Sequence record: OK254198.1
Strand: one strand, 5' to 3'
Length of the DNA stretch: 64,000 nt
Origin: Escherichia phage PSD2001
Positions 3,996-37,560 of the stretch are shown piece by piece; the first letter of the stretch is position 1; each line of letters starts with the position of its first letter. A program made the translations under genes and the position numbers. Below the pieces are notes generated by a model. It searched no databases and was not told the origin of the DNA. It saw nothing but the letters and a program-made list of their open reading frames with translations.

Positions 3996-4356
3996 ATTTG
4001 AAAGCTTTTTGTAGAAGTTCAATGATTTGGTCAACGTTATTAGCATCCACAACACAATTAATAGAAACCGCACCTGAAGGTGTTTTTGCATAACTAGAGT
4101 ATTCACGGAAGCAATAAAACTCTTCTTCACTAAGTTCAAAATAATCATCGCCCATACCATCATCATTATAGATTGCACCATTAGCACAAATGATTTCGGT
4201 TACATAATCATAGCCGTCTGCACTTGATATTGATTTAACTTCAAACCAACCGCCATTTTCTTGGATGATGTCGACCATACCAGCATTCGATGAACTAATA
4301 TCAATGAAAGATTTAATACGATGTGGATTGAACTCATATTTTTTGCCGATTTCCAT
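3994..4356 (-). CDS. hypothetical protein (120 aa), paralog of 3285..3647
   Basis: ORF track; shared motif with 3285..3647; early promoter cassette upstream. Confidence 0.6.
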   Translation of the reverse strand: MEIGKKYEFNPHRIKSFIDISSSNAGMVDIIQENGGWFEVKSISSADGYDYVTEIICANGAIYNDDGMGDDYFELSEEEFYCFREYSSYAKTPSGAVSINCVVDANNVDQIIELLQKAFK

Positions 4357-4393
4357 TTTAATTTCCTCAGTTGTTATCAGTAGTTGATGGAAT

Positions 4394-4433
4394 CATTATG
4401 CCTTAGCTCAAAGGACTTGTACACTACTTTTTG
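4394..4433 (-). promoter_or_regulatory. early promoter cassette
   Basis: cattat...cttgtacactactttttg directly after the gene 32 terminator. Confidence 0.6.
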
Positions 4434-4444
4434 AAAATAAAAAA

Positions 4445-4460
4445 GGGACCCGAAGGTCCC
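4445..4460 (-). terminator. rho-independent terminator after gene 32
   Basis: gggaccCGAAggtccc followed by a T-run on the minus strand. Confidence 0.75.
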
Positions 4461-4466
4461 CTTATA

Positions 4467-5378
4467 TTAAAGGCCAGCCAGAAGGTCGTCAAGACCATCA
4501 TCAGAAGGCTCTGGAGTGCTTGGAGCAGTCGCAGTGCGTTCAGACTTAGCAGGTTTGCTGGAAGTGAAGTCTTCCATATCTTTATCAAAATCGTCCAGGT
4601 CAGCACCCAGTTTATCGGCTTGCGCAGCAGCTTTAGAAGCAGCACCACCGAGAGCAGCTGTACCCATTACTTTAGAGAATTTCTTCTGATTCTCTTCAAG
4701 AGATTTAAATACCAGCAATTCATTCAGGTCAGACATTTCGTCCCAAAGTTTTTTCTGGAATGCTTCATCATTGATGCCAGCGATTTCAGACTGGTTCATG
4801 AATTTGGAATCATCGTAGTTTTTATAATTGGAAACCATTTTAGATTTCAGTACGAAGTTCGCACCTTCAAAAGGACAGGTTACATCAACAGCTGTTTCGC
4901 CCATGTCAACATCGACTTCAACCATCTGGTTGATTTTGTCCATGATTTTCTTACCAAAGCGATATTTGAATACTTGACCTTCGTTAGACGGAACTGCAGG
5001 GTCTTTAATGACCAGGATGTTAGCCCAGTAAGAAGTATTACGCTTCAGTTTACGATATTCGGATTCGTTTGTATTGTACAGGTCATTCTTATTCATGTAC
5101 GCACACACAGGGCAGTTTTCATAATCGCCGTGAGTAGAAGTACAGTTTTCAATATACCATTGACCAGCATTTTTAAAGCCGTGGTTAACGAGCTTGATGA
5201 ATGGAGATGGATTTTCTTCATTCTTAGAAGGCAGGAAACGAATAACCGCAGAGCCGACGCCATCAGTATCTTTCAGTTTCCATTCTTTTTTATCGTCAGA
5301 AGAGAAACCAGAACCACCTTTAAGAGCGTTAAGGGAAGCAGCCAGGTCAGCAGGGTTTTTACGTTTAAACATAGACAT
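4467..5378 (-). CDS. 32: single-stranded DNA-binding protein gp32
   Basis: 303 aa; [23 protein letters not shown]...; Zn-binding Cys/His cluster; acidic C-terminus; terminator hairpin immediately downstream. Confidence 0.95.
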
Positions 5379-30279: not shown

Positions 30280-32112
30280 TTATAGCGTCGCATTCATCCA
30301 GTCTTTACGCTGCTGGGAATCTTTACCGAATAGCATTTCGAACAGTTCTTTCCAGTTGTCGGGCAATTGAACAACTTCGAATACCGGTTCGAGCAATACA
30401 CGTTTATACTCGGAATCTTCCAGAGAACCAAGTCCCTTGATATATCGGATGGTGTGCTTCGGAAGTTTATCCTTAGCTTCTTCATAGTCAGGAAGAGAAT
30501 AGAACCATTCTTGTTTATCTTTGAGCTGTGCAATAATAACAGGAGTTTTCACAAAGCGAATTCGTCCTTCATGGAACAGCTCCGGCCAGTTACTGAAAAA
30601 CGCCAATAATGATGGATAGATACTACCGACACCATCCACATCCGCATCTGTCATGATAGCAATGTTTCGGTAATTCATATTCTCGGCCGGCTGACCAATC
30701 GTTAACCCAGTAATTGCACACACATCAAAGGCTTCGGCGTTCTTCATAACGTCAACGGCTTTCAGACCCCATGTGTTTTTAAACTTACCACGTAATGGAT
30801 AAGCACCTTGCAATTCACGGTCGCGAACCTTGATAAATGGACCAGTTGCAGAATCACCCTCGGTCAGGAACAGAGTCGTTTCCAGCTTATCATTGCCCCA
30901 TTCGTTGGCCTTGATATGCTTCTGTACCTTGGCCTTTGAAGCTTTCTTATTTGCCTTAGTCTCTGCTGCTTTCTCTGCAGCCAATTTACGGGCTAACGCA
31001 GCTTCAACAATCGGCATAATCAGCGGTTCATTTTTCAGAATAGCTTGCGCGATTTTCTTAGCATCAATCTTAATGTGATTTCGGATTTCACCAGCCGGAG
31101 AAGTCAATCGCTCCTTGGTCTGGGAATCAAATCGCATGTTGCTCATATCGCGGATGAACATAAGCATGGTGAGACATTCTTTAACTCGTGCCTTGGTCAC
31201 CTCGATGCCTTTATATTTGCGCTTAATCGCCGGCTGAAGGTGTTCACAGATATCATCCATAACACATTCAACGTGGTGTCCGCCATTCTTTGTATGAATG
31301 TTGTTGACATAAGTCAGCTGACGGAAACCGTCCGGGCTGGTCGTAAAGGCCATCGATACTGTATCAGTTTCCTGGATAACAACTTCAGTCCCGAATTGCT
31401 TGGAGAACTTCTTGAAATTACCATCAACCTTTTTACCATTAAAGGTGAACTGAATATCCGGATAAACAACCGCGAGAGTTTGCAGACGGTCCAATGTAAT
31501 ATCCAGATAAATCTGGGACAGACTATTTTCTTCAAAGTGACTAAAATCTGGAACAAATATAACAGTTGTACCTTTGCCCTTAGATTTCTTGGTGGACCAA
31601 CCTTTGTTTTCCATACCGTTGGAGCAGTTAACGGTGATTTCATTTGCACCATCAGCGGTAATCCCGGTGAACAATACAGAGAAAATATTGGTCAGAGAAG
31701 ACCCGACACCATTCATCCCGCCAGTTTTACGTTCAGCATCATCACCGAAGTTGCCACCGGCTTTTGGAATAGTCCATGCTGCAACAGGGCCAGGGATTTG
31801 TTCACCGTTTTGGTCTGTAACCATTGCTTGTGGAATACCACGGCCATTATCAGAAACCGAAATCTGATTATCTTTAATTTGGACATCAATTTTATTGGCA
31901 AATTTAAAACTGGTGCGAATTGCTTCATCAACAGAGTTATCGATAATTTCATCAATCAGTTTTACAATACCAGGAACATAGCTTACGGACTTATATTCAC
32001 CAAACAAGAATCGCTCATGCGCTTCATTTGAACTGGAACCAATATACATCCCGGAACGTTTTTTGATATGTTCGACGTCCGAGAGTACTTTAATTTCATT
32101 ATTAATCATCAT
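30280..32112 (-). CDS. 39: DNA topoisomerase II large (ATPase) subunit, uninterrupted 39+60 fusion form
   Basis: 610 aa single ORF; GyrB-like N-terminus; longer than the split T4 gp39 as recalled, consistent with a contiguous 39+60. Confidence 0.93.
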   Translation of the reverse strand: MMINNEIKVLSDVEHIKKRSGMYIGSSSNEAHERFLFGEYKSVSYVPGIVKLIDEIIDNSVDEAIRTSFKFANKIDVQIKDNQISVSDNGRGIPQAMVTDQNGEQIPGPVAAWTIPKAGGNFGDDAERKTGGMNGVGSSLTNIFSVLFTGITADGANEITVNCSNGMENKGWSTKKSKGKGTTVIFVPDFSHFEENSLSQIYLDITLDRLQTLAVVYPDIQFTFNGKKVDGNFKKFSKQFGTEVVIQETDTVSMAFTTSPDGFRQLTYVNNIHTKNGGHHVECVMDDICEHLQPAIKRKYKGIEVTKARVKECLTMLMFIRDMSNMRFDSQTKERLTSPAGEIRNHIKIDAKKIAQAILKNEPLIMPIVEAALARKLAAEKAAETKANKKASKAKVQKHIKANEWGNDKLETTLFLTEGDSATGPFIKVRDRELQGAYPLRGKFKNTWGLKAVDVMKNAEAFDVCAITGLTIGQPAENMNYRNIAIMTDADVDGVGSIYPSLLAFFSNWPELFHEGRIRFVKTPVIIAQLKDKQEWFYSLPDYEEAKDKLPKHTIRYIKGLGSLEDSEYKRVLLEPVFEVVQLPDNWKELFEMLFGKDSQQRKDWMNATL

Positions 32113-32162
32113 CTTTCCTCTTGTGTATGGAGGTATTATAAGTCACATATTTTAAAGCAAAA

Positions 32163-32176
32163 AGGCCCGAAGGCCT
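32163..32176 (-). terminator. rho-independent terminator after 32178..32582
   Basis: aggccCGAAggcct + T-run. Confidence 0.65.
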
Positions 32177-32177
32177 T

Positions 32178-32582
32178 TTATTTGAATCGAAGCTGCTCTA
32201 ACATTTTAATAGCTTGTAGGCGCCCGGCTTCAGTTTTAACCGTAATAATAACATCGCCGCCGGTAACAACGATATCCTCTTTTGATTCCTGTTCGGTTAT
32301 TTCAGAATCATATTCCTTTATCGGGGTTTCTTCAAAATATTTAAATTCATCACCAAAAATAAGACCGGTTCCATTACGGCTATGGAAAGAAAATTCAGTT
32401 CCATCGATAGTACTAAATTCCGTAACAACATTTGCTTCCATCTTAGTGACTGAAAACTCTTTGGTAGTAACCAAATCAATGATAGAGGTTCCTTGTTGGT
32501 TCAAAATGCTACCAGGCATACCGACATGTTTAAGGAAGCCATCTAAATCTTTAATGTGATAACTCTTTCCAATTTTAAACAT
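32178..32582 (-). CDS. hypothetical protein (134 aa)
   Basis: Internal Met with GAGGA RBS; upstream extension overlaps the lipoprotein gene; terminator hairpin directly downstream. Confidence 0.5.
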   Translation of the reverse strand: MFKIGKSYHIKDLDGFLKHVGMPGSILNQQGTSIIDLVTTKEFSVTKMEANVVTEFSTIDGTEFSFHSRNGTGLIFGDEFKYFEETPIKEYDSEITEQESKEDIVVTGGDVIITVKTEAGRLQAIKMLEQLRFK

Positions 32583-32589
32583 AATATCC

Positions 32590-32850
32590 TCATTCGAATC
32601 GGATGGTTGAATTCTTAAACAGCAATCCAGAACAAACAGTTCCTTTAACTTTCTTACCAGTTGGCCCGACGGCCGTAAAGCCTGTATGTTGGAAATCATC
32701 TTCAGAGCAACCCATCCAGTTATATCCGGTGATTTGGATTTGCTCATAGCCGTTTGCATCTAATACACGAATGGCATTATCTGCATCAGTACAACCAGCC
32801 AATGAAACCGCCAGTACCAGTGCTGCAATAGAACGATTAATGTATTTCAT
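32590..32850 (-). CDS. small lipoprotein (86 aa; signal peptide with LAGC lipobox)
   Basis: MKYINRSIAALVLAVSLAGCTD... lipoprotein signal peptide. Confidence 0.6.
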   Translation of the reverse strand: MKYINRSIAALVLAVSLAGCTDADNAIRVLDANGYEQIQITGYNWMGCSEDDFQHTGFTAVGPTGKKVKGTVCSGLLFKNSTIRFE

Positions 32851-32856
32851 AATTTC

Positions 32857-33033
32857 TCACTTAGTCAGCAGGTCGTAAAAACCGCCATTAACATGTTTAG
32901 GAGCCGAGACTAACCGAACAGCCAGCCGATGGCAATCAGGACAAACATCATTATCTCTTTCAGAGATTTTCTTGATTTTTTCGTATTCTTTCGCGCAGTC
33001 ATTGGATTGGCATTTGTAGTCATAAAGTGGCAT
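32857..33033 (-). CDS. zinc-ribbon protein (58 aa; FmdB-like CxxxxC...CPDC); not in ORF track
   Basis: Hand-translated MPLYDYKCQSNDCAKEYEKIKKISERDNDVCPDCHRLAVRLVSAPKHVNGG...; AAGGA RBS. Confidence 0.55.
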   Translation of the reverse strand: MPLYDYKCQSNDCAKEYEKIKKISERDNDVCPDCHRLAVRLVSAPKHVNGGFYDLLTK

Positions 33034-33034
33034 G

Positions 33035-33409
33035 TTATTCCTTAAAATGTGCTTTCAACATCTGGTAAACGGTCCAGGCTTCAGAGTTATTAGAAATAGT
33101 GATTTTAGTCAAAGGGAATTCGCTTGGTTCAAATGCTTCATCAGCGTCTTCACATTCATCTTCAGTATCGTCATCTTTTTCTTCTTCAAAGAAACGACGT
33201 TCATCTTCCTTTATGAATATTCTCTCTATTCCACCGGTCGAAAATTCTATCCGATATACATCACCACCTTCAATTCCGACTGGTCTAAATCCTTCACCAT
33301 TGATTATAGCATCAGCTATATTATCATTATCAGAGCATAACAAACGGAATCTGCTTTCAGCAACATTATCTTTAAAATAATACCATTTATCAGTTTCAAA
33401 TTTCAACAT
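33035..33409 (-). CDS. hypothetical acidic protein (124 aa)
   Basis: Internal Met with AGGAGA RBS; acidic tract EEEKDDDTEDECEDADEAFEPSEF. Confidence 0.5.
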   Translation of the reverse strand: MLKFETDKWYYFKDNVAESRFRLLCSDNDNIADAIINGEGFRPVGIEGGDVYRIEFSTGGIERIFIKEDERRFFEEEKDDDTEDECEDADEAFEPSEFPLTKITISNNSEAWTVYQMLKAHFKE

Positions 33410-33626
33410 GATAAGTCTCCTTCCAAAAATCTGTACCATCTTCTGATTCTTCGCGGAACAGCGCATAGCTGGGTAGTTCCGCACCTTCATACGCATACAC
33501 ATAAATGATGTCAGTGGTGCAAAGAAATTCATTGATATTTTTCTTAACAATCACTTTATCACTTTCAGCGGTTTCCCAGAACTCTTCAGCGGTCAGGGAA
33601 GTGGTCACGCAATCTTCATTAAACAT
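33396..33626 (-). CDS. hypothetical acidic protein (76 aa)
   Basis: ORF track; GAGGAG RBS. Confidence 0.5.
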   Translation of the reverse strand: MFNEDCVTTSLTAEEFWETAESDKVIVKKNINEFLCTTDIIYVYAYEGAELPSYALFREESEDGTDFWKETYHVEI

Positions 33627-33672
33627 AATATTCTCCTCAATGATAGGGCAAAAACCCTATCATTTTTATAAT

Positions 33673-34164
33673 TTAGGCAAAATGAATATCAGCATACTCA
33701 ACGATAAAGCTCTCAGGAACAACCTTAAAGGTTCCAAGGAATACGATATTATACAGTTTGACACCTTCTTCAACCCACTGGTCGGTGATGTAACCGGACA
33801 TACTAGTGGTTTCATAAGTCGGACCGTACTTGCAATTGTATTCAAACGGTTTAGGTGAAACGAAAAAGACACCTTTACCTAATTTCCATTTAAAATCAAC
33901 CCCAACATGAGACTGGTCGATGGTTTCAACTTCTTCAACCACAGGGGCGATATATCCAGTAAATTCAGTTGATTCCAGGAATTTAGGATGTACATAAGCC
34001 AATTGAGTTTCAGCATGACCATGTTTAGGAATAATACGCACTTTAACTTCTTTAATTCCACCCACTAAATTAGTGCGAAGACCTACAACCTCAACAAAAC
34101 GACCAGCAGCTTTAGAACGAGATTCTTTAGAAACACGTACAATATCACCAGCTTCAACTTTCAT
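33673..34164 (-). CDS. hypothetical protein (163 aa), paralog of 34244..34999 by C-terminal domain
   Basis: Shared C-terminal motif GY.TDQW.E.GV.L.N.V..G.F.VVP.S..VE; early promoter cassette upstream. Confidence 0.6.
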   Translation of the reverse strand: MKVEAGDIVRVSKESRSKAAGRFVEVVGLRTNLVGGIKEVKVRIIPKHGHAETQLAYVHPKFLESTEFTGYIAPVVEEVETIDQSHVGVDFKWKLGKGVFFVSPKPFEYNCKYGPTYETTSMSGYITDQWVEEGVKLYNIVFLGTFKVVPESFIVEYADIHFA

Positions 34165-34204
34165 AATTTTCTCTCTTGGTTAATAAGTTTATTCTCCAGT
34201 GGGA

Positions 34205-34240
34205 CCATTATACTCTGGCCCCAAGAGTTTGTACACTTTA
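34205..34240 (-). promoter_or_regulatory. early promoter cassette with stem-loop
   Basis: gggaccattatactctggcccc...tttgtacact; upstream of 33673..34164. Confidence 0.55.
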
Positions 34241-34243
34241 AAT

Positions 34244-34999
34244 TTAATTAAAAATTTCAACAACCATGGAACGTGGTACAACAGTAAATTCACCAGCATG
34301 GACAACGTTCAGGAGTTCAACACCATCCTCAATCCACTGGTCTGTTACCCAACCACAAATGGAACTGTTAAATGGGCGTTTGATTTGAACTGGTTTACAC
34401 AACAAGTCAATAGGGTCACCCAGTTCGCTAACTTCTTTCAGCAGCACAGATTCACGCGGATAAAGGATAGCTTCAAGATTGTCACCTGATTCATTGACTG
34501 CAGTAAATTCAAAGATGCTTTGGTGATTGTGGTACTTAACTGTTTTAACGGTAAATGGAGTAAATCCAAAAATACCTTTCAGTACGCGCCAACCAGCATG
34601 CATTGCAACAGTCTTTCCAAATTGACTATCATCTTCAATAAGCTGATAGGTTTTACCAACTTTGATAGGAGTTTCTTCAACTTCTTTGAAGAGTTCAATC
34701 TCAGCTTCATAAACCATAATTTTTTCTACTTCATTAGTATCAAGGCGACGTGCATGCAGAATATATGCTTTATCAAACCAGTTACTTTTTACAAAAGTTT
34801 CAACAATAAATTCGCCTTCACCTAAAGCATCAGTCAAAGTATTATATCCAGAAACCATAGCTGCGTTTTGAATAATAGGTTCAATCAGTTGATAAGTTTT
34901 GTTAATTTCAATAGTCATATTTTGTTTCTCAAGTTTTAATGGTTTAATTGGGCGAACATACATACTTACAACATCAAAGTCAATAAATTCTGGTTTCAT
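34244..34999 (-). CDS. hypothetical protein (251 aa) with internal repeat and C-terminal domain shared with 33673..34164
   Basis: Internal duplication (..NKTYQLIEP.. / ..GKTYQLIEDD..); shared C-terminal domain. Confidence 0.6.
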   Translation of the reverse strand: MKPEFIDFDVVSMYVRPIKPLKLEKQNMTIEINKTYQLIEPIIQNAAMVSGYNTLTDALGEGEFIVETFVKSNWFDKAYILHARRLDTNEVEKIMVYEAEIELFKEVEETPIKVGKTYQLIEDDSQFGKTVAMHAGWRVLKGIFGFTPFTVKTVKYHNHQSIFEFTAVNESGDNLEAILYPRESVLLKEVSELGDPIDLLCKPVQIKRPFNSSICGWVTDQWIEDGVELLNVVHAGEFTVVPRSMVVEIFN

Positions 35000-35256
35000 T
35001 ATGCAACCTTATTGAACATCGCCAGTTGATTAGGTTGTACAACCATAATTTCACGACGACCTTTTGCATTTGACACGTTCAGGTAGATGCCTTTGTTCAT
35101 GTCTGTTTCTTTATCATATACCGCAATTTTATTGACAGTAAAGATTTTACCACGAATATTTGTAAATGCACATTCAAACGCTTTAGTCAGACCTGCTTCA
35201 GCAGCTTGAAGAGCAGACATTTCATATTGTTGGCCAATTTCAAAAGAAGTAATCAT
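34999..35256 (-). CDS. hypothetical protein (85 aa)
   Basis: Internal Met with GAGGA RBS; the track ORF's 5' extension (STTDEDNK) is the translated conserved leader cassette. Confidence 0.5.
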   Translation of the reverse strand: MITSFEIGQQYEMSALQAAEAGLTKAFECAFTNIRGKIFTVNKIAVYDKETDMNKGIYLNVSNAKGRREIMVVQPNQLAMFNKVA

Positions 35257-35287
35257 TTTGTTATCCTCATCAGTAGTTGATGAGATG

Positions 35288-35325
35288 ATTATGTCTCTTT
35301 CCATTGGCCTTGTACACTACTTTTT
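35288..35325 (-). promoter_or_regulatory. early promoter cassette
   Basis: gattatg...cttgtacactactttttat; between dexA and 34999..35256. Confidence 0.5.
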
Positions 35326-36010
35326 ATCGTTTTTTCGGCAAAGATAATGGGTCTGCATCTTCTTCGGAAGGAACTTCATCTAAACCAAGAGCATAGCGCT
35401 GGGCATACTTCAACATCAAAATATCTTTCGCGCAGTCATGTACCGAATCGTGCGCCACAAATCCATCTAAAGTCCCTTTTGGTAATGGGGTTTCACACAT
35501 CTTACGGACGAGTGACAGGGCTTCGATTGCTGTCCTAATATCACGCTGGTTCCAGAATACAACCGGCTCCAGGTCATAGGTATTCAATTCACGCTCAGGA
35601 ATCCCCTCATTGCGCTGTAGGTCGCGGATAAGGTCAACAAACAACGGGAAGTCAAAAGACATTCCACGGCACCACATAAGGCTTTCGTATTTGTTAATTC
35701 CATTGCCATTCAGATAGTCAATCGCCTGTTGGATACCGGTCAGAGTATCAATATCATGCGCAGAAGGAGCCAGGTTAACACGAGCTTCTGGTGATTGTTT
35801 TTTCCACCAACCCATGGTTGTTGTGTCGAACAACCGCTTACCTTTTTGGTATTCGAGGCTGAACTTAATACGTTTGCCGCGATTAACCAGGGTTTCGAAT
35901 GATTCCACAATAGCAGGGTCAGATTCGAATGTAATCAGAGCCAGGTCAATAACGGCCCCCTTCGAGCCGTTTCCCAGAGTTTCAAAGTCAATAATAGCAT
36001 CAATCATCAC
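35324..36010 (-). CDS. dexA: exonuclease A (DexA)
   Basis: 228 aa; ...IDFETLG...AVIDLA...WCRGMSFDFP..VDLIRD...LPKGTLDGFVAHDS.HDCAKDI.M.KYA.RYA.GL... matches T4 DexA. Confidence 0.92.
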   Translation of the reverse strand: MMIDAIIDFETLGNGSKGAVIDLALITFESDPAIVESFETLVNRGKRIKFSLEYQKGKRLFDTTTMGWWKKQSPEARVNLAPSAHDIDTLTGIQQAIDYLNGNGINKYESLMWCRGMSFDFPLFVDLIRDLQRNEGIPERELNTYDLEPVVFWNQRDIRTAIEALSLVRKMCETPLPKGTLDGFVAHDSVHDCAKDILMLKYAQRYALGLDEVPSEEDADPLSLPKKR

Positions 36011-36239
36011 ACATCTCTTTTAATTTCTGAATTTCGCCAGCAACATAATCAGAGATAAAAATCCCTGGCTCTTCATTGTTAAAATATTCAATCGCGGCCA
36101 TACGTTTCCGAATAAGATTCAGTTCCAGTAAAACGTAATTACCCTGTTGGACGATAGTCGGATTATCTTCGAAAAATTCAACCGCGTCCTGAATACCATA
36201 GATAAGAGTATCTAAATCTTCTTTATGTACTTTATACAT
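36000..36239 (-). CDS. hypothetical protein (79 aa), dexA.1-like
   Basis: ORF track; short overlaps with dda and dexA. Confidence 0.45.
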   Translation of the reverse strand: MYKVHKEDLDTLIYGIQDAVEFFEDNPTIVQQGNYVLLELNLIRKRMAAIEYFNNEEPGIFISDYVAGEIQKLKEMCDD

Positions 36240-37560
36240 AATATGCGTCGTACCTCGCTCGTGTGATTCCTACATAAGCCAACTGGCTCGCTAATGAAGC
36301 TTCGGCCATATGGATGCATGGAGTATAGATGAATGCTTTGTCCACTGAAACGCCCTGGGCCTTGTGGATTGTACTGACCGGAAGAGCACGAACTTTCAAG
36401 AAGGTCCGGCGAGCTTTCCAGAAGTCTTTCCACTCTGGACGTTTACCAGCGGCTTTCATCTGTTTGTATGTGTCAGCAACTTTAGCCAGATATGCCTGGA
36501 ATTTCGGTTGCTGGTCTTCTGGTAAAACTTTGATGCGGTCAACCTGATATTCTTCATCTTCATCAATTGACTCAACTTCCAGGTCCCAGTAATTAATCAC
36601 TAACTGGTGCGATTCACCTTTACAACGGAGAATTGTGGAAGTGTATTTGCAATCCTTGATGCGAACCAACTGACCATTATTAAAAATGGTTTCGCTGAAT
36701 TTCTTACCTTCAAATTCCAGCTCTTTCATGTGTGGCTCTTGCATAACCAGGACTTCATACGGTAAAAATGCTTTATCCGTTTCATAGAGCTTACGGCGAA
36801 TGATATTGTTCAGTTTTTCAACTGATTTATTCGTGTAAGCATACATCCGGTTTTCCATCAACATATCAGCATCTTTTACAATACTGAAATAGTTTATCAT
36901 GAAATCCTTTAAAGCGGTTTGTGAGGTGAAACCTTGTACGCCATGACCTTCATACATACAATCACGGAACCAGCCACCATTACGAATTTCTGTCGCCACT
37001 TCAATGATAGGAGCATTGCTTCGCATGACCTCAGTCAGATGAATCTGTTTGAACTTAGGATGCGTAAAGAATGGGCTTATCTTTTGTTGTGTGCTTCCTG
37101 GGTCAACTGGTTGCAGCTGGTGCATATCACCAATCCCAAGAATAGTACACCATTCAGGAACAGAGTTAAGAATAATCTTAAACAGAGACCCGTCATACAT
37201 ACTTGCTTCATCACAAACCAGAACATTGCATTTTGACATGTCAGGCATTTCGCGCTGTTCAAAAACGTTTTGGTCTTCATATGTGGTCGGGTTAATCTTC
37301 AGAATACTATGGATTGTATTCGCCGTTTGACCAGACAATTTAGATAGAACCTTTTTTGCCTGGTGAGTTGGTGCAGCAAGCACAATTCCCATAACTCCAT
37401 TACGCACTAAGTGGTCAATGACAAATTTTGTCAGAGTAGTTTTACCTGTGCCAGCTGGGCCATTCAGAGTGATACATTCCCCTGAACGTCGCTGAATAGC
37501 TTCAGTGATATAATCAAAAGCTTCTTTTTGTCCTGTGTTCAAGTCTTCAAATTTAATCAT
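36232..37560 (-). CDS. dda: Dda DNA helicase (SF1)
   Basis: 442 aa; Walker A GPAGTGKTTLTKF; matches T4 Dda throughout. Confidence 0.95.
   Translation of the reverse strand: MIKFEDLNTGQKEAFDYITEAIQRRSGECITLNGPAGTGKTTLTKFVIDHLVRNGVMGIVLAAPTHQAKKVLSKLSGQTANTIHSILKINPTTYEDQNVFEQREMPDMSKCNVLVCDEASMYDGSLFKIILNSVPEWCTILGIGDMHQLQPVDPGSTQQKISPFFTHPKFKQIHLTEVMRSNAPIIEVATEIRNGGWFRDCMYEGHGVQGFTSQTALKDFMINYFSIVKDADMLMENRMYAYTNKSVEKLNNIIRRKLYETDKAFLPYEVLVMQEPHMKELEFEGKKFSETIFNNGQLVRIKDCKYTSTILRCKGESHQLVINYWDLEVESIDEDEEYQVDRIKVLPEDQQPKFQAYLAKVADTYKQMKAAGKRPEWKDFWKARRTFLKVRALPVSTIHKAQGVSVDKAFIYTPCIHMAEASLASQLAYVGITRARYDAYYV

Follow-up and report, generated by a model that had tools for sequence, protein, structure and literature searches.

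Results and Discussion

Identity of the two genes

Two adjacent open reading frames (ORFs), of 163 and 251 amino acids (aa), lie at positions 33,673–34,999 of a 64,000-nucleotide (nt) stretch of Escherichia phage PSD2001 (record OK254198.1), and it is this stretch at its full length that we refer to as the window. We assign the 163-aa ORF as motB and the 251-aa ORF as motB.1, old paralogues over a C-terminal domain of ~55–65 aa (Table 1). An initial annotation of this DNA had delimited both ORFs correctly, leaving unstated that they lie on the minus strand, and had placed them among the early genes between gene 39 and dexA of a T4-like phage, a location that the gene order bears out. It had also held that no function could be assigned to either; however, the 163-aa ORF matches a characterised family and the 251-aa ORF corresponds to the annotated motB.1, as described below. 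By sequence, the source is an SP18-like T4-type phage of the genus Gaprivervirus, and the 4-kb stretch around motB and motB.1 has 97.7% DNA identity to phage CJ20 and 97.1% to Shigella phage SP18.

The 163-aa ORF is covered from end to end by the Pfam profile PF17613 (residues 1–162 on profile positions 1–161 of 162; E = 6.9e-51, 172.7 bits against a cut-off of 25) and matches PHROG 1671 with E = 9.5e-67. T4 MotB aligns with it over the full length at 53% identity (E = 5e-56), a phage PSD2001 protein is 100% identical to it, and the equivalent gene is annotated motB in SP18. As in T4 MotB, a KOW-like N-terminal barrel is followed by a linker and the C-terminal domain, the gene lies between motB.1 and cef, and the promoter region is nearly identical. 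The two differ in that the identity is no higher than 53% and in that the biochemistry is known for the T4 protein, whereas the MotB of the window is known from its sequence. For the 251-aa ORF, the PHROG 2333 match has E = 5.5e-79, and the Pfam motB match is confined to residues 211–247 (E = 1.1e-8, 35.5 bits against a cut-off of 25). Its counterparts are annotated motB.1 in SP18 and JS98, 'MotB-like transcriptional regulator' in RZ, and 'MotB domain-containing protein' in UPEC01. Membership of the MotB.1 family is evidenced by the PHROG 2333 match, by a MotB-type C-terminal domain joined to an N-terminal region that is not of the KOW type, and by a position immediately upstream of motB.

This gene pair is already known, as near-identical phages carry annotations for it and the literature covers both the shared domain and how the N-terminal domain of MotB.1 folds. 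Patterson-West et al. (2021) aligned 102 phage homologues and found that MotB and MotB.1 have a conserved C-terminal domain in common and differ in their N-terminal domains, which fall into several categories with Gaprivervirus among the genera represented; they noted that motB.1 is immediately upstream of motB and that one gene is probably a duplicate of the other (PMC7827196). The finding therefore carries little weight as a discovery, and what the present analysis adds is minor: the tandem architecture of MotB.1, the insertion pattern around its leader motif, and the acidity of the shared domain.

The shared C-terminal domain

The C-terminal motif that the initial annotation had described is present in both proteins, and its string is accurate apart from position 2, where one protein has Tyr and the other Trp. 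Between residues 119–156 of MotB and 211–248 of MotB.1, 20 of 38 positions are identical and 29 are positive (BLASTP, E = 2e-12). The Smith-Waterman score of this core is 119, against 32.4 ± 5.3 for shuffled sequences, and none of 2000 shuffles scores as high. Comparison of family profiles of the shared domain with hhalign aligns 53 columns, MotB 94–159 to MotB.1 199–251, at a probability of 98.3% and E = 2.4e-14, with an insertion of ~13 residues in MotB inside the alignment. Upstream of the core, plain pairwise alignment of MotB and MotB.1 gives no similarity (z = 0.6), and only the profile-profile comparison extends it. The paralogy of the two genes over this domain, as first annotated, is thus borne out by BLASTP, by the shuffles, and by the profile alignment.

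AlphaFold2 (AF2) models MotB with a predicted local distance difference test score (pLDDT) of 78 as an N-terminal barrel, a disordered linker at residues 68–84, and a C-terminal domain of five strands (residues 98–110, 116–132, 135–142, 145–150, and 154–157; pLDDT 80–93). The shared domain is accordingly modelled as an acidic, five-stranded small β-barrel. Structure searches with whole models as queries matched, among others, eIF5A, Tudor, chromo, PWWP, and KOW domains. With the small β-barrels of the KOW, EF-P domain I, and Tudor types the relationship is one of fold resemblance only, at 6–20% sequence identity, and not of family or function.

The shared cores have an isoelectric point (pI) of 4.2–4.4, the N-terminal domain of MotB has a pI of 10, and the net charge of the entire MotB.1 protein is −13. 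In addition, the MotB.1 core from C215 to R243 is almost invariant across 31 diverse homologues, while the N-terminal domains vary. The near-invariance of the core across genera indicates that it is under purifying selection. At the DNA level, identity within the core reaches ~76% over the best 41 nt and is lower elsewhere, and because the resemblance extends no further than this, we take the motB/motB.1 duplication to be old. A recent duplication or gene conversion is rejected on the same grounds.

Tandem modules in MotB.1

The initial annotation had also pointed to an internal duplication in the 251-aa protein, and this holds: NKTYQLIEP corresponds to residues 33–41 and GKTYQLIEDD to residues 115–124. 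The repeat is, however, wider than KTYQLIE and extends over ~80 aa. Residues 28–108 and 109–192, which we call modules A and B, are collinear end to end, with a Smith-Waterman score of 70 against 24.3 ± 4.6 for shuffles (z = 10, 0 of 2000 as high), and the similarity persists when the first 14 residues are removed (z = 4.5). The profiles of the two modules align over 79 columns with a probability of 96.9% and E = 1.4e-10. The AF2 model of MotB.1 (mean pLDDT 75) comprises a disordered leader followed by three compact domains, and the order of elements is alike in modules A and B, namely strand, helix, three strands, short helix, and strand.

Table 1. Coordinates of the features discussed in the text, as positions in the window
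Feature	Position	Strand	Description or basis
motB.1 coding sequence, 251 aa	34244..34999	-	leader motif, module A, module B, MotB-type C-terminal domain
MotB.1 leader motif IDFDVVSMYVRPIKPL, residues 1–27	34919..34999	-	modelled as disordered, pLDDT 42–48; conserved across the family
Module A, residues 28–108	34676..34918	-	small β-barrel with one helix; AF2 pLDDT 79–89
Module B, residues 109–192	34424..34675	-	second copy of the module A fold; T4 MotB.1 match, AF2
MotB.1 C-terminal domain, residues 193–251	34247..34423	-	five strands, AF2 pLDDT 77–85; pI 4.7
MotB.1 core in common with MotB, residues 211–248	34256-34369	-	BLASTP, hhalign
motB coding sequence, 163 aa	33673..34164	-	early DNA-binding 'modifier of transcription' protein, by Pfam, PHROG, and T4 homology
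MotB N-terminal KOW-like small β-barrel, residues 1–66	33967..34164	-	basic, pI ~10
MotB C-terminal domain, residues 88–163	33676..33903	-	five β-strands (AF2)
MotB conserved core in common with MotB.1, residues 119–156	33697-33810	-	core pI 4.4
Early-type sigma-70 promoter-like site, TGTACA-17-TATAAT	34207..34235	-	upstream of motB; scan, 10 of 12 positions
Putative promoter-like site, TGTACA-17-CATAAT	35288..35316	-	between dexA and the 85-aa ORF; scan, 9 of 12 positions
Upstream ORF, 85 aa from Met17	34999..35256	-	annotated as 101 aa, to 35304, in SP18
Hairpin, perfect, 10 bp (AATGATAGGG-loop-CCCTATCATT)	33639-33664		between the motB stop codon and the cef Shine-Dalgarno sequence
GoF-like ORF	32178-32576	-	PHROG 622 and PHROG 13003 (goF)
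GoF-like ORF	33035-33409	-	PHROG 622 and PHROG 13003 (goF)
dexA	35324-36010	-	
dda	36232-37560	-	
Gene 39	30280-32112	-	

Residues 2–115 of T4 MotB.1 align with residues 112–223 of the 251-aa protein, that is, from module B onward, at 38% identity (BLASTP, E = 2.6e-17). By sequence, module B thus belongs with the N-terminal domain of T4 MotB.1, which Kim et al. (2025) modelled as an LSm-like barrel related to GoF and Frd.2 (PMC12152347). At the level of sequence and model, both modules fall in with this fold, as B matches T4 MotB.1, A matches B, and each has five strands. The likeness to the published GoF/MotB.1/Frd.2 family lies in the five-stranded, bent-sheet barrel that A and B have in common with it; the difference is that no sequence-level similarity of either module to GoF or to the GoF-like ORFs of the window is shown. 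Module A has a weak match to PHROG 622 (E = 0.0038). A sequence search of the PDB with both proteins returned nothing useful, its sole match being the marginal PH0828 (E = 0.038), and a search of NCBIfam returned no match.

The leader motif bears on how the modules came to be arranged. In KOW-type MotB-like proteins, the same motif stands directly before the 'DPTDLL' that begins the C-terminal domain (z 6.5–9.1, 0 of 3000 shuffles as high). Because the leader directly precedes the C-terminal domain in these proteins, we read the barrel modules of MotB.1 as insertions between the two.

Architectures across the family

Comparison of MotB.1 homologues shows that the elements described above occur in several combinations. 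Most T-even relatives have a protein of 180 aa with the leader, module A, and the C-terminal domain; the T4 type, of 143–144 aa, has module B and the C-terminal domain alone. Proteins of 165 aa carry the leader, B, and the C-terminal domain, in those of 164 aa the leader follows B, and in those of 247–250 aa a further N-terminal module precedes the leader, A, and the C-terminal domain. The 251-aa form, with the leader, A, B, and the C-terminal domain, belongs to the window phage and its close relatives, and was found in ~33 of 738 phage records with a match. T4 MotB.1 (PHROG 2333; categories 2–4 of Patterson-West et al. 2021) therefore resembles the window protein in its place upstream of motB, its C-terminal domain, and its homology to module B, and differs in having B only and lacking the leader motif. 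The shuffling of N-terminal modules (A, B, A+B, and C+A) between a conserved motif and the C-terminal domain may be of use to work on host takeover by T4, as may the acidity and near-invariance of the shared domain and the frameshift described below.

The family as a whole is small: among 1.84 billion cluster representatives, a profile search picked out 23 clusters at E ≤ 0.001, and the sequences read among them are all small KOW- or LSm-type MotB/MotB.1-like proteins; a match to a 5855-aa protein in the same search (E = 3.5e-5) is probably spurious. In the KOW-headed homologues from this search, as noted above, the leader motif stands directly before the C-terminal domain. In PWKp16, PEi26, and PM2, phages of Klebsiella, Edwardsiella, and Pectobacterium, the protein annotated as MotB or transcriptional regulator has a C-terminal domain of the MotB.1 type, with 54–67% identity. 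The domain type in these distant phages and the leader placement in the KOW-headed homologues together hint that the form with KOW barrel, leader, and C-terminal domain may be ancestral and MotB.1 a derived paralogue.

MotB itself also varies in its linker. Proteins of the JS98 type (183–190 aa) have an insertion of ~21 aa in the linker (ESHDGYVCESNDIRGVV...), and the MotB of the window is without it. The insertion, ESHDGYVCESNDIRGVVAQDV, occurs in many MotB orthologues (183–191 aa), is missing from T4 MotB as well, and resembles the leader-type motif 'DGYVVDTDVASMY' of the KOW-type relatives.

A frameshift in the T4 reference

In the T4 reference NC_000866, motB.1 (4143–4651 of the compared stretch) contains one extra G, reading ATTGGAAG where the T4 assembly OZ035787 (310–741) reads ATTGAAG. 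The extra G shortens MotB.1 to 119 aa ('13.8 kDa'), and the final 26 residues of its MotB-type C-terminal domain are then no longer in frame. The newer assembly, OZ035787, encodes an intact MotB.1 of 143 aa, and a T4-type homologue of 144 aa was recovered in the protein search. Published work on MotB.1 quotes 13.8 kDa (PMC12152347), and the frameshift may affect how the published constructs are read.

Proposed function and alternatives

Two reports describe T4 MotB as an abundant early protein that binds DNA tightly and nonspecifically, co-purifies with H-NS and StpA, and is toxic in E. coli; they also describe a doubled burst size, a changed footprint of H-NS, and relief of repression in part of the H-NS regulon (PMC6070864, PMC7827196). 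By homology, the MotB of the window would be made early and in quantity and would coat DNA without sequence preference. It would alter H-NS-DNA complexes in such a way that H-NS-silenced genes are de-repressed and the burst size is modestly raised. The label of host takeover that the initial annotation had applied fits MotB in this respect.

For the shared C-terminal domain, the data weakly suggest that it serves in docking or self-association and is not the main surface for DNA contact, because the core is acidic where the KOW barrel is basic, because it is almost invariant while the N-terminal domains swap, and because MotB.1 as a whole has a net charge of −13. An acidic, almost invariant domain in both proteins fits a partner that the two have in common better than it fits DNA binding. 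The basic KOW barrel would on this view provide the DNA contact of MotB. Through the shared domain, MotB.1 might deliver its two LSm-like barrels to the partner or complex of MotB, and would not itself coat DNA. Considered as a whole, the explanation made up of the motB/motB.1 identities, the barrel architecture, a MotB function by homology, and, as its weak part, a docking role for the C-terminal domain is in our judgement very probably correct.

Several observations nevertheless weigh against it. The function of MotB is carried over from a T4 protein that is only 53% identical, and the window proteins are known from sequence. The models are of moderate confidence, with pLDDT of 75–78 and a predicted template modelling score of 0.39–0.45, and charge is a weak guide to nucleic-acid binding. 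Furthermore, a DNA-independent contact between MotB and H-NS was sought in T4 and not found, hence there is no known protein partner that the two could have in common (PMC7827196). Finally, T4 MotB.1 was without effect in one reporter assay, on the level of either RNA or protein, and its deletion from T4 gave no phenotype (PMC12152347).

A different reading takes both proteins to be DNA-binding nucleoid proteins. The shared domain would then be a DNA-binding OB-fold, as predicted in the literature, with MotB.1 as another factor that coats DNA or displaces H-NS. The C-terminal domain of MotB has been assigned to the OB-fold from HHpred and its N-terminal domain predicted to be of the KOW type, and either could bind DNA (PMC7827196); moreover, the C-terminal domain is the only part that MotB and MotB.1 have in common. 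The acidity of the shared core and the net charge of MotB.1 run counter to this, and we consider it unlikely. The LSm-like barrels invite another reading, of MotB.1 as an RNA-binding, Hfq-like post-transcriptional regulator in which the barrels bind RNA and the C-terminal domain tethers or oligomerises the protein. In favour of such a role are the placing of the N-terminal domain of T4 MotB.1 in one group with GoF, the D25Y mutant of which stabilises gene 41 mRNA (PMC12152347), the homology of module B to that domain, and the five-stranded barrel pattern in both modules. However, the unchanged reporter levels speak against it, as do the charges of the modules (net −8 for A and −2 for B) and the failure to obtain a confident multimer model in the published work (PMC12152347), and on balance we find this role doubtful.

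The initial annotation had regarded duplicated, diverging early genes in a variable region as typical of host-takeover or anti-defence factors under selection; a reading along this line would make the two genes a recently duplicated, fast-diverging pair under diversifying selection that encodes anti-defence factors. The region is dispensable in the laboratory, its gene content varies between T4-like phages, and the N-terminal modules are shuffled between phages, all of which would suit such factors. Against this stand the age of the duplication, the presence of both genes across several genera, and the purifying selection that the near-invariant core indicates, and neither the present analysis nor the MotB/MotB.1 literature that we examined links either gene to anti-defence. 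The anti-defence reading is consequently unsupported, and we regard it as very improbable. Coincidence or composition might in principle account for the shared motif and the internal repeat, as the stretches of identity span only 38 aa and, in the case of KTYQLIE, 7 aa, but the BLASTP value of 2e-12, the absence of any equal score among 2000 shuffles, and the profile values of 2.4e-14 and 1.4e-10 leave this explanation with virtually no probability and rule it out.

A bolder version of the docking proposal would turn the C-terminal barrel and the IDxDVxSMYxxPIxPL motif into a portable docking cassette, by which T4-like phages attach exchangeable small-barrel heads to a single target or to one another. 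In MotB the observed head is a KOW barrel; in MotB.1 the heads are the LSm-like modules A, B, or A+B, or a third type. MotB and MotB.1 might on this proposal both work on one nucleoid complex, perhaps as hetero-oligomers, with the A+B form of the window phage as a two-headed variant. This is speculation to which we give little credence at present.

Promoters and the upstream ORF

The initial annotation had given each gene its own early promoter. For motB this is supported at the level of sequence: the putative promoter region, GTGTACAAACTCTTGGGGCCAGAGTATAATGG, is nearly identical to that upstream of motB in T4. It does not hold for motB.1: its ATG and the stop codon of the preceding ORF overlap as TAATG, leaving no intergenic space. 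From this overlap, motB.1 is assigned as translationally coupled to the 85-aa ORF. The nearest candidate promoter for motB.1 is the site between that ORF and dexA, which is a weaker match than the motB site and would serve the preceding ORF first.

For the upstream ORF, which has an annotated length of 101 aa, the probable start is Met17 (35256), giving a protein of 85 aa. A Shine-Dalgarno sequence, GAGGA, lies 8 nt upstream of Met17, PHROG 17795 covers residues 17–101 only, and the ATG chosen in the annotation is within the spacer of the promoter-like site. The ends of the 85-aa protein resemble those of modules A and B, with FEIGQQYEM at the start and QLAMFNKV at the end as compared with IEINKTYQL...ELFKEV, and this protein may represent another module of that fold, standing alone. 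The similarity to A and B is weak, with Smith-Waterman z values of 2.4–2.7 and a non-significant hhalign comparison. We make no claim that this ORF, the window GoF, or the GoF-like ORF of 132 aa belongs to the A/B family, as none exceeds z = 2.7 and the hhalign comparisons are non-significant.

Neighbouring features

The perfect hairpin that follows motB has no U-tract on the coding (minus) strand, and so does not qualify as a classical terminator for transcription on that strand. A search of Rfam over 32000–36500, which includes the hairpin, gave no match at E ≤ 0.1. The two GoF-like ORFs of the window, considered with the PHROG 622 match of module A, agree with the published proposal of a single family of LSm-like modules distributed across several early genes of this region. 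On the minus strand, the order of genes is dda, dexA, the 85-aa ORF, motB.1, motB, cef, goF, 39.2, 39.1, and 39. A 79-aa ORF lies between dda and dexA, and goF, the zinc-ribbon gene 39.2, the lipoprotein gene 39.1, and a GoF-like ORF lie between cef and gene 39. The order in T4 is the same, except that motB.2 takes the place of the ORF annotated as 101 aa.

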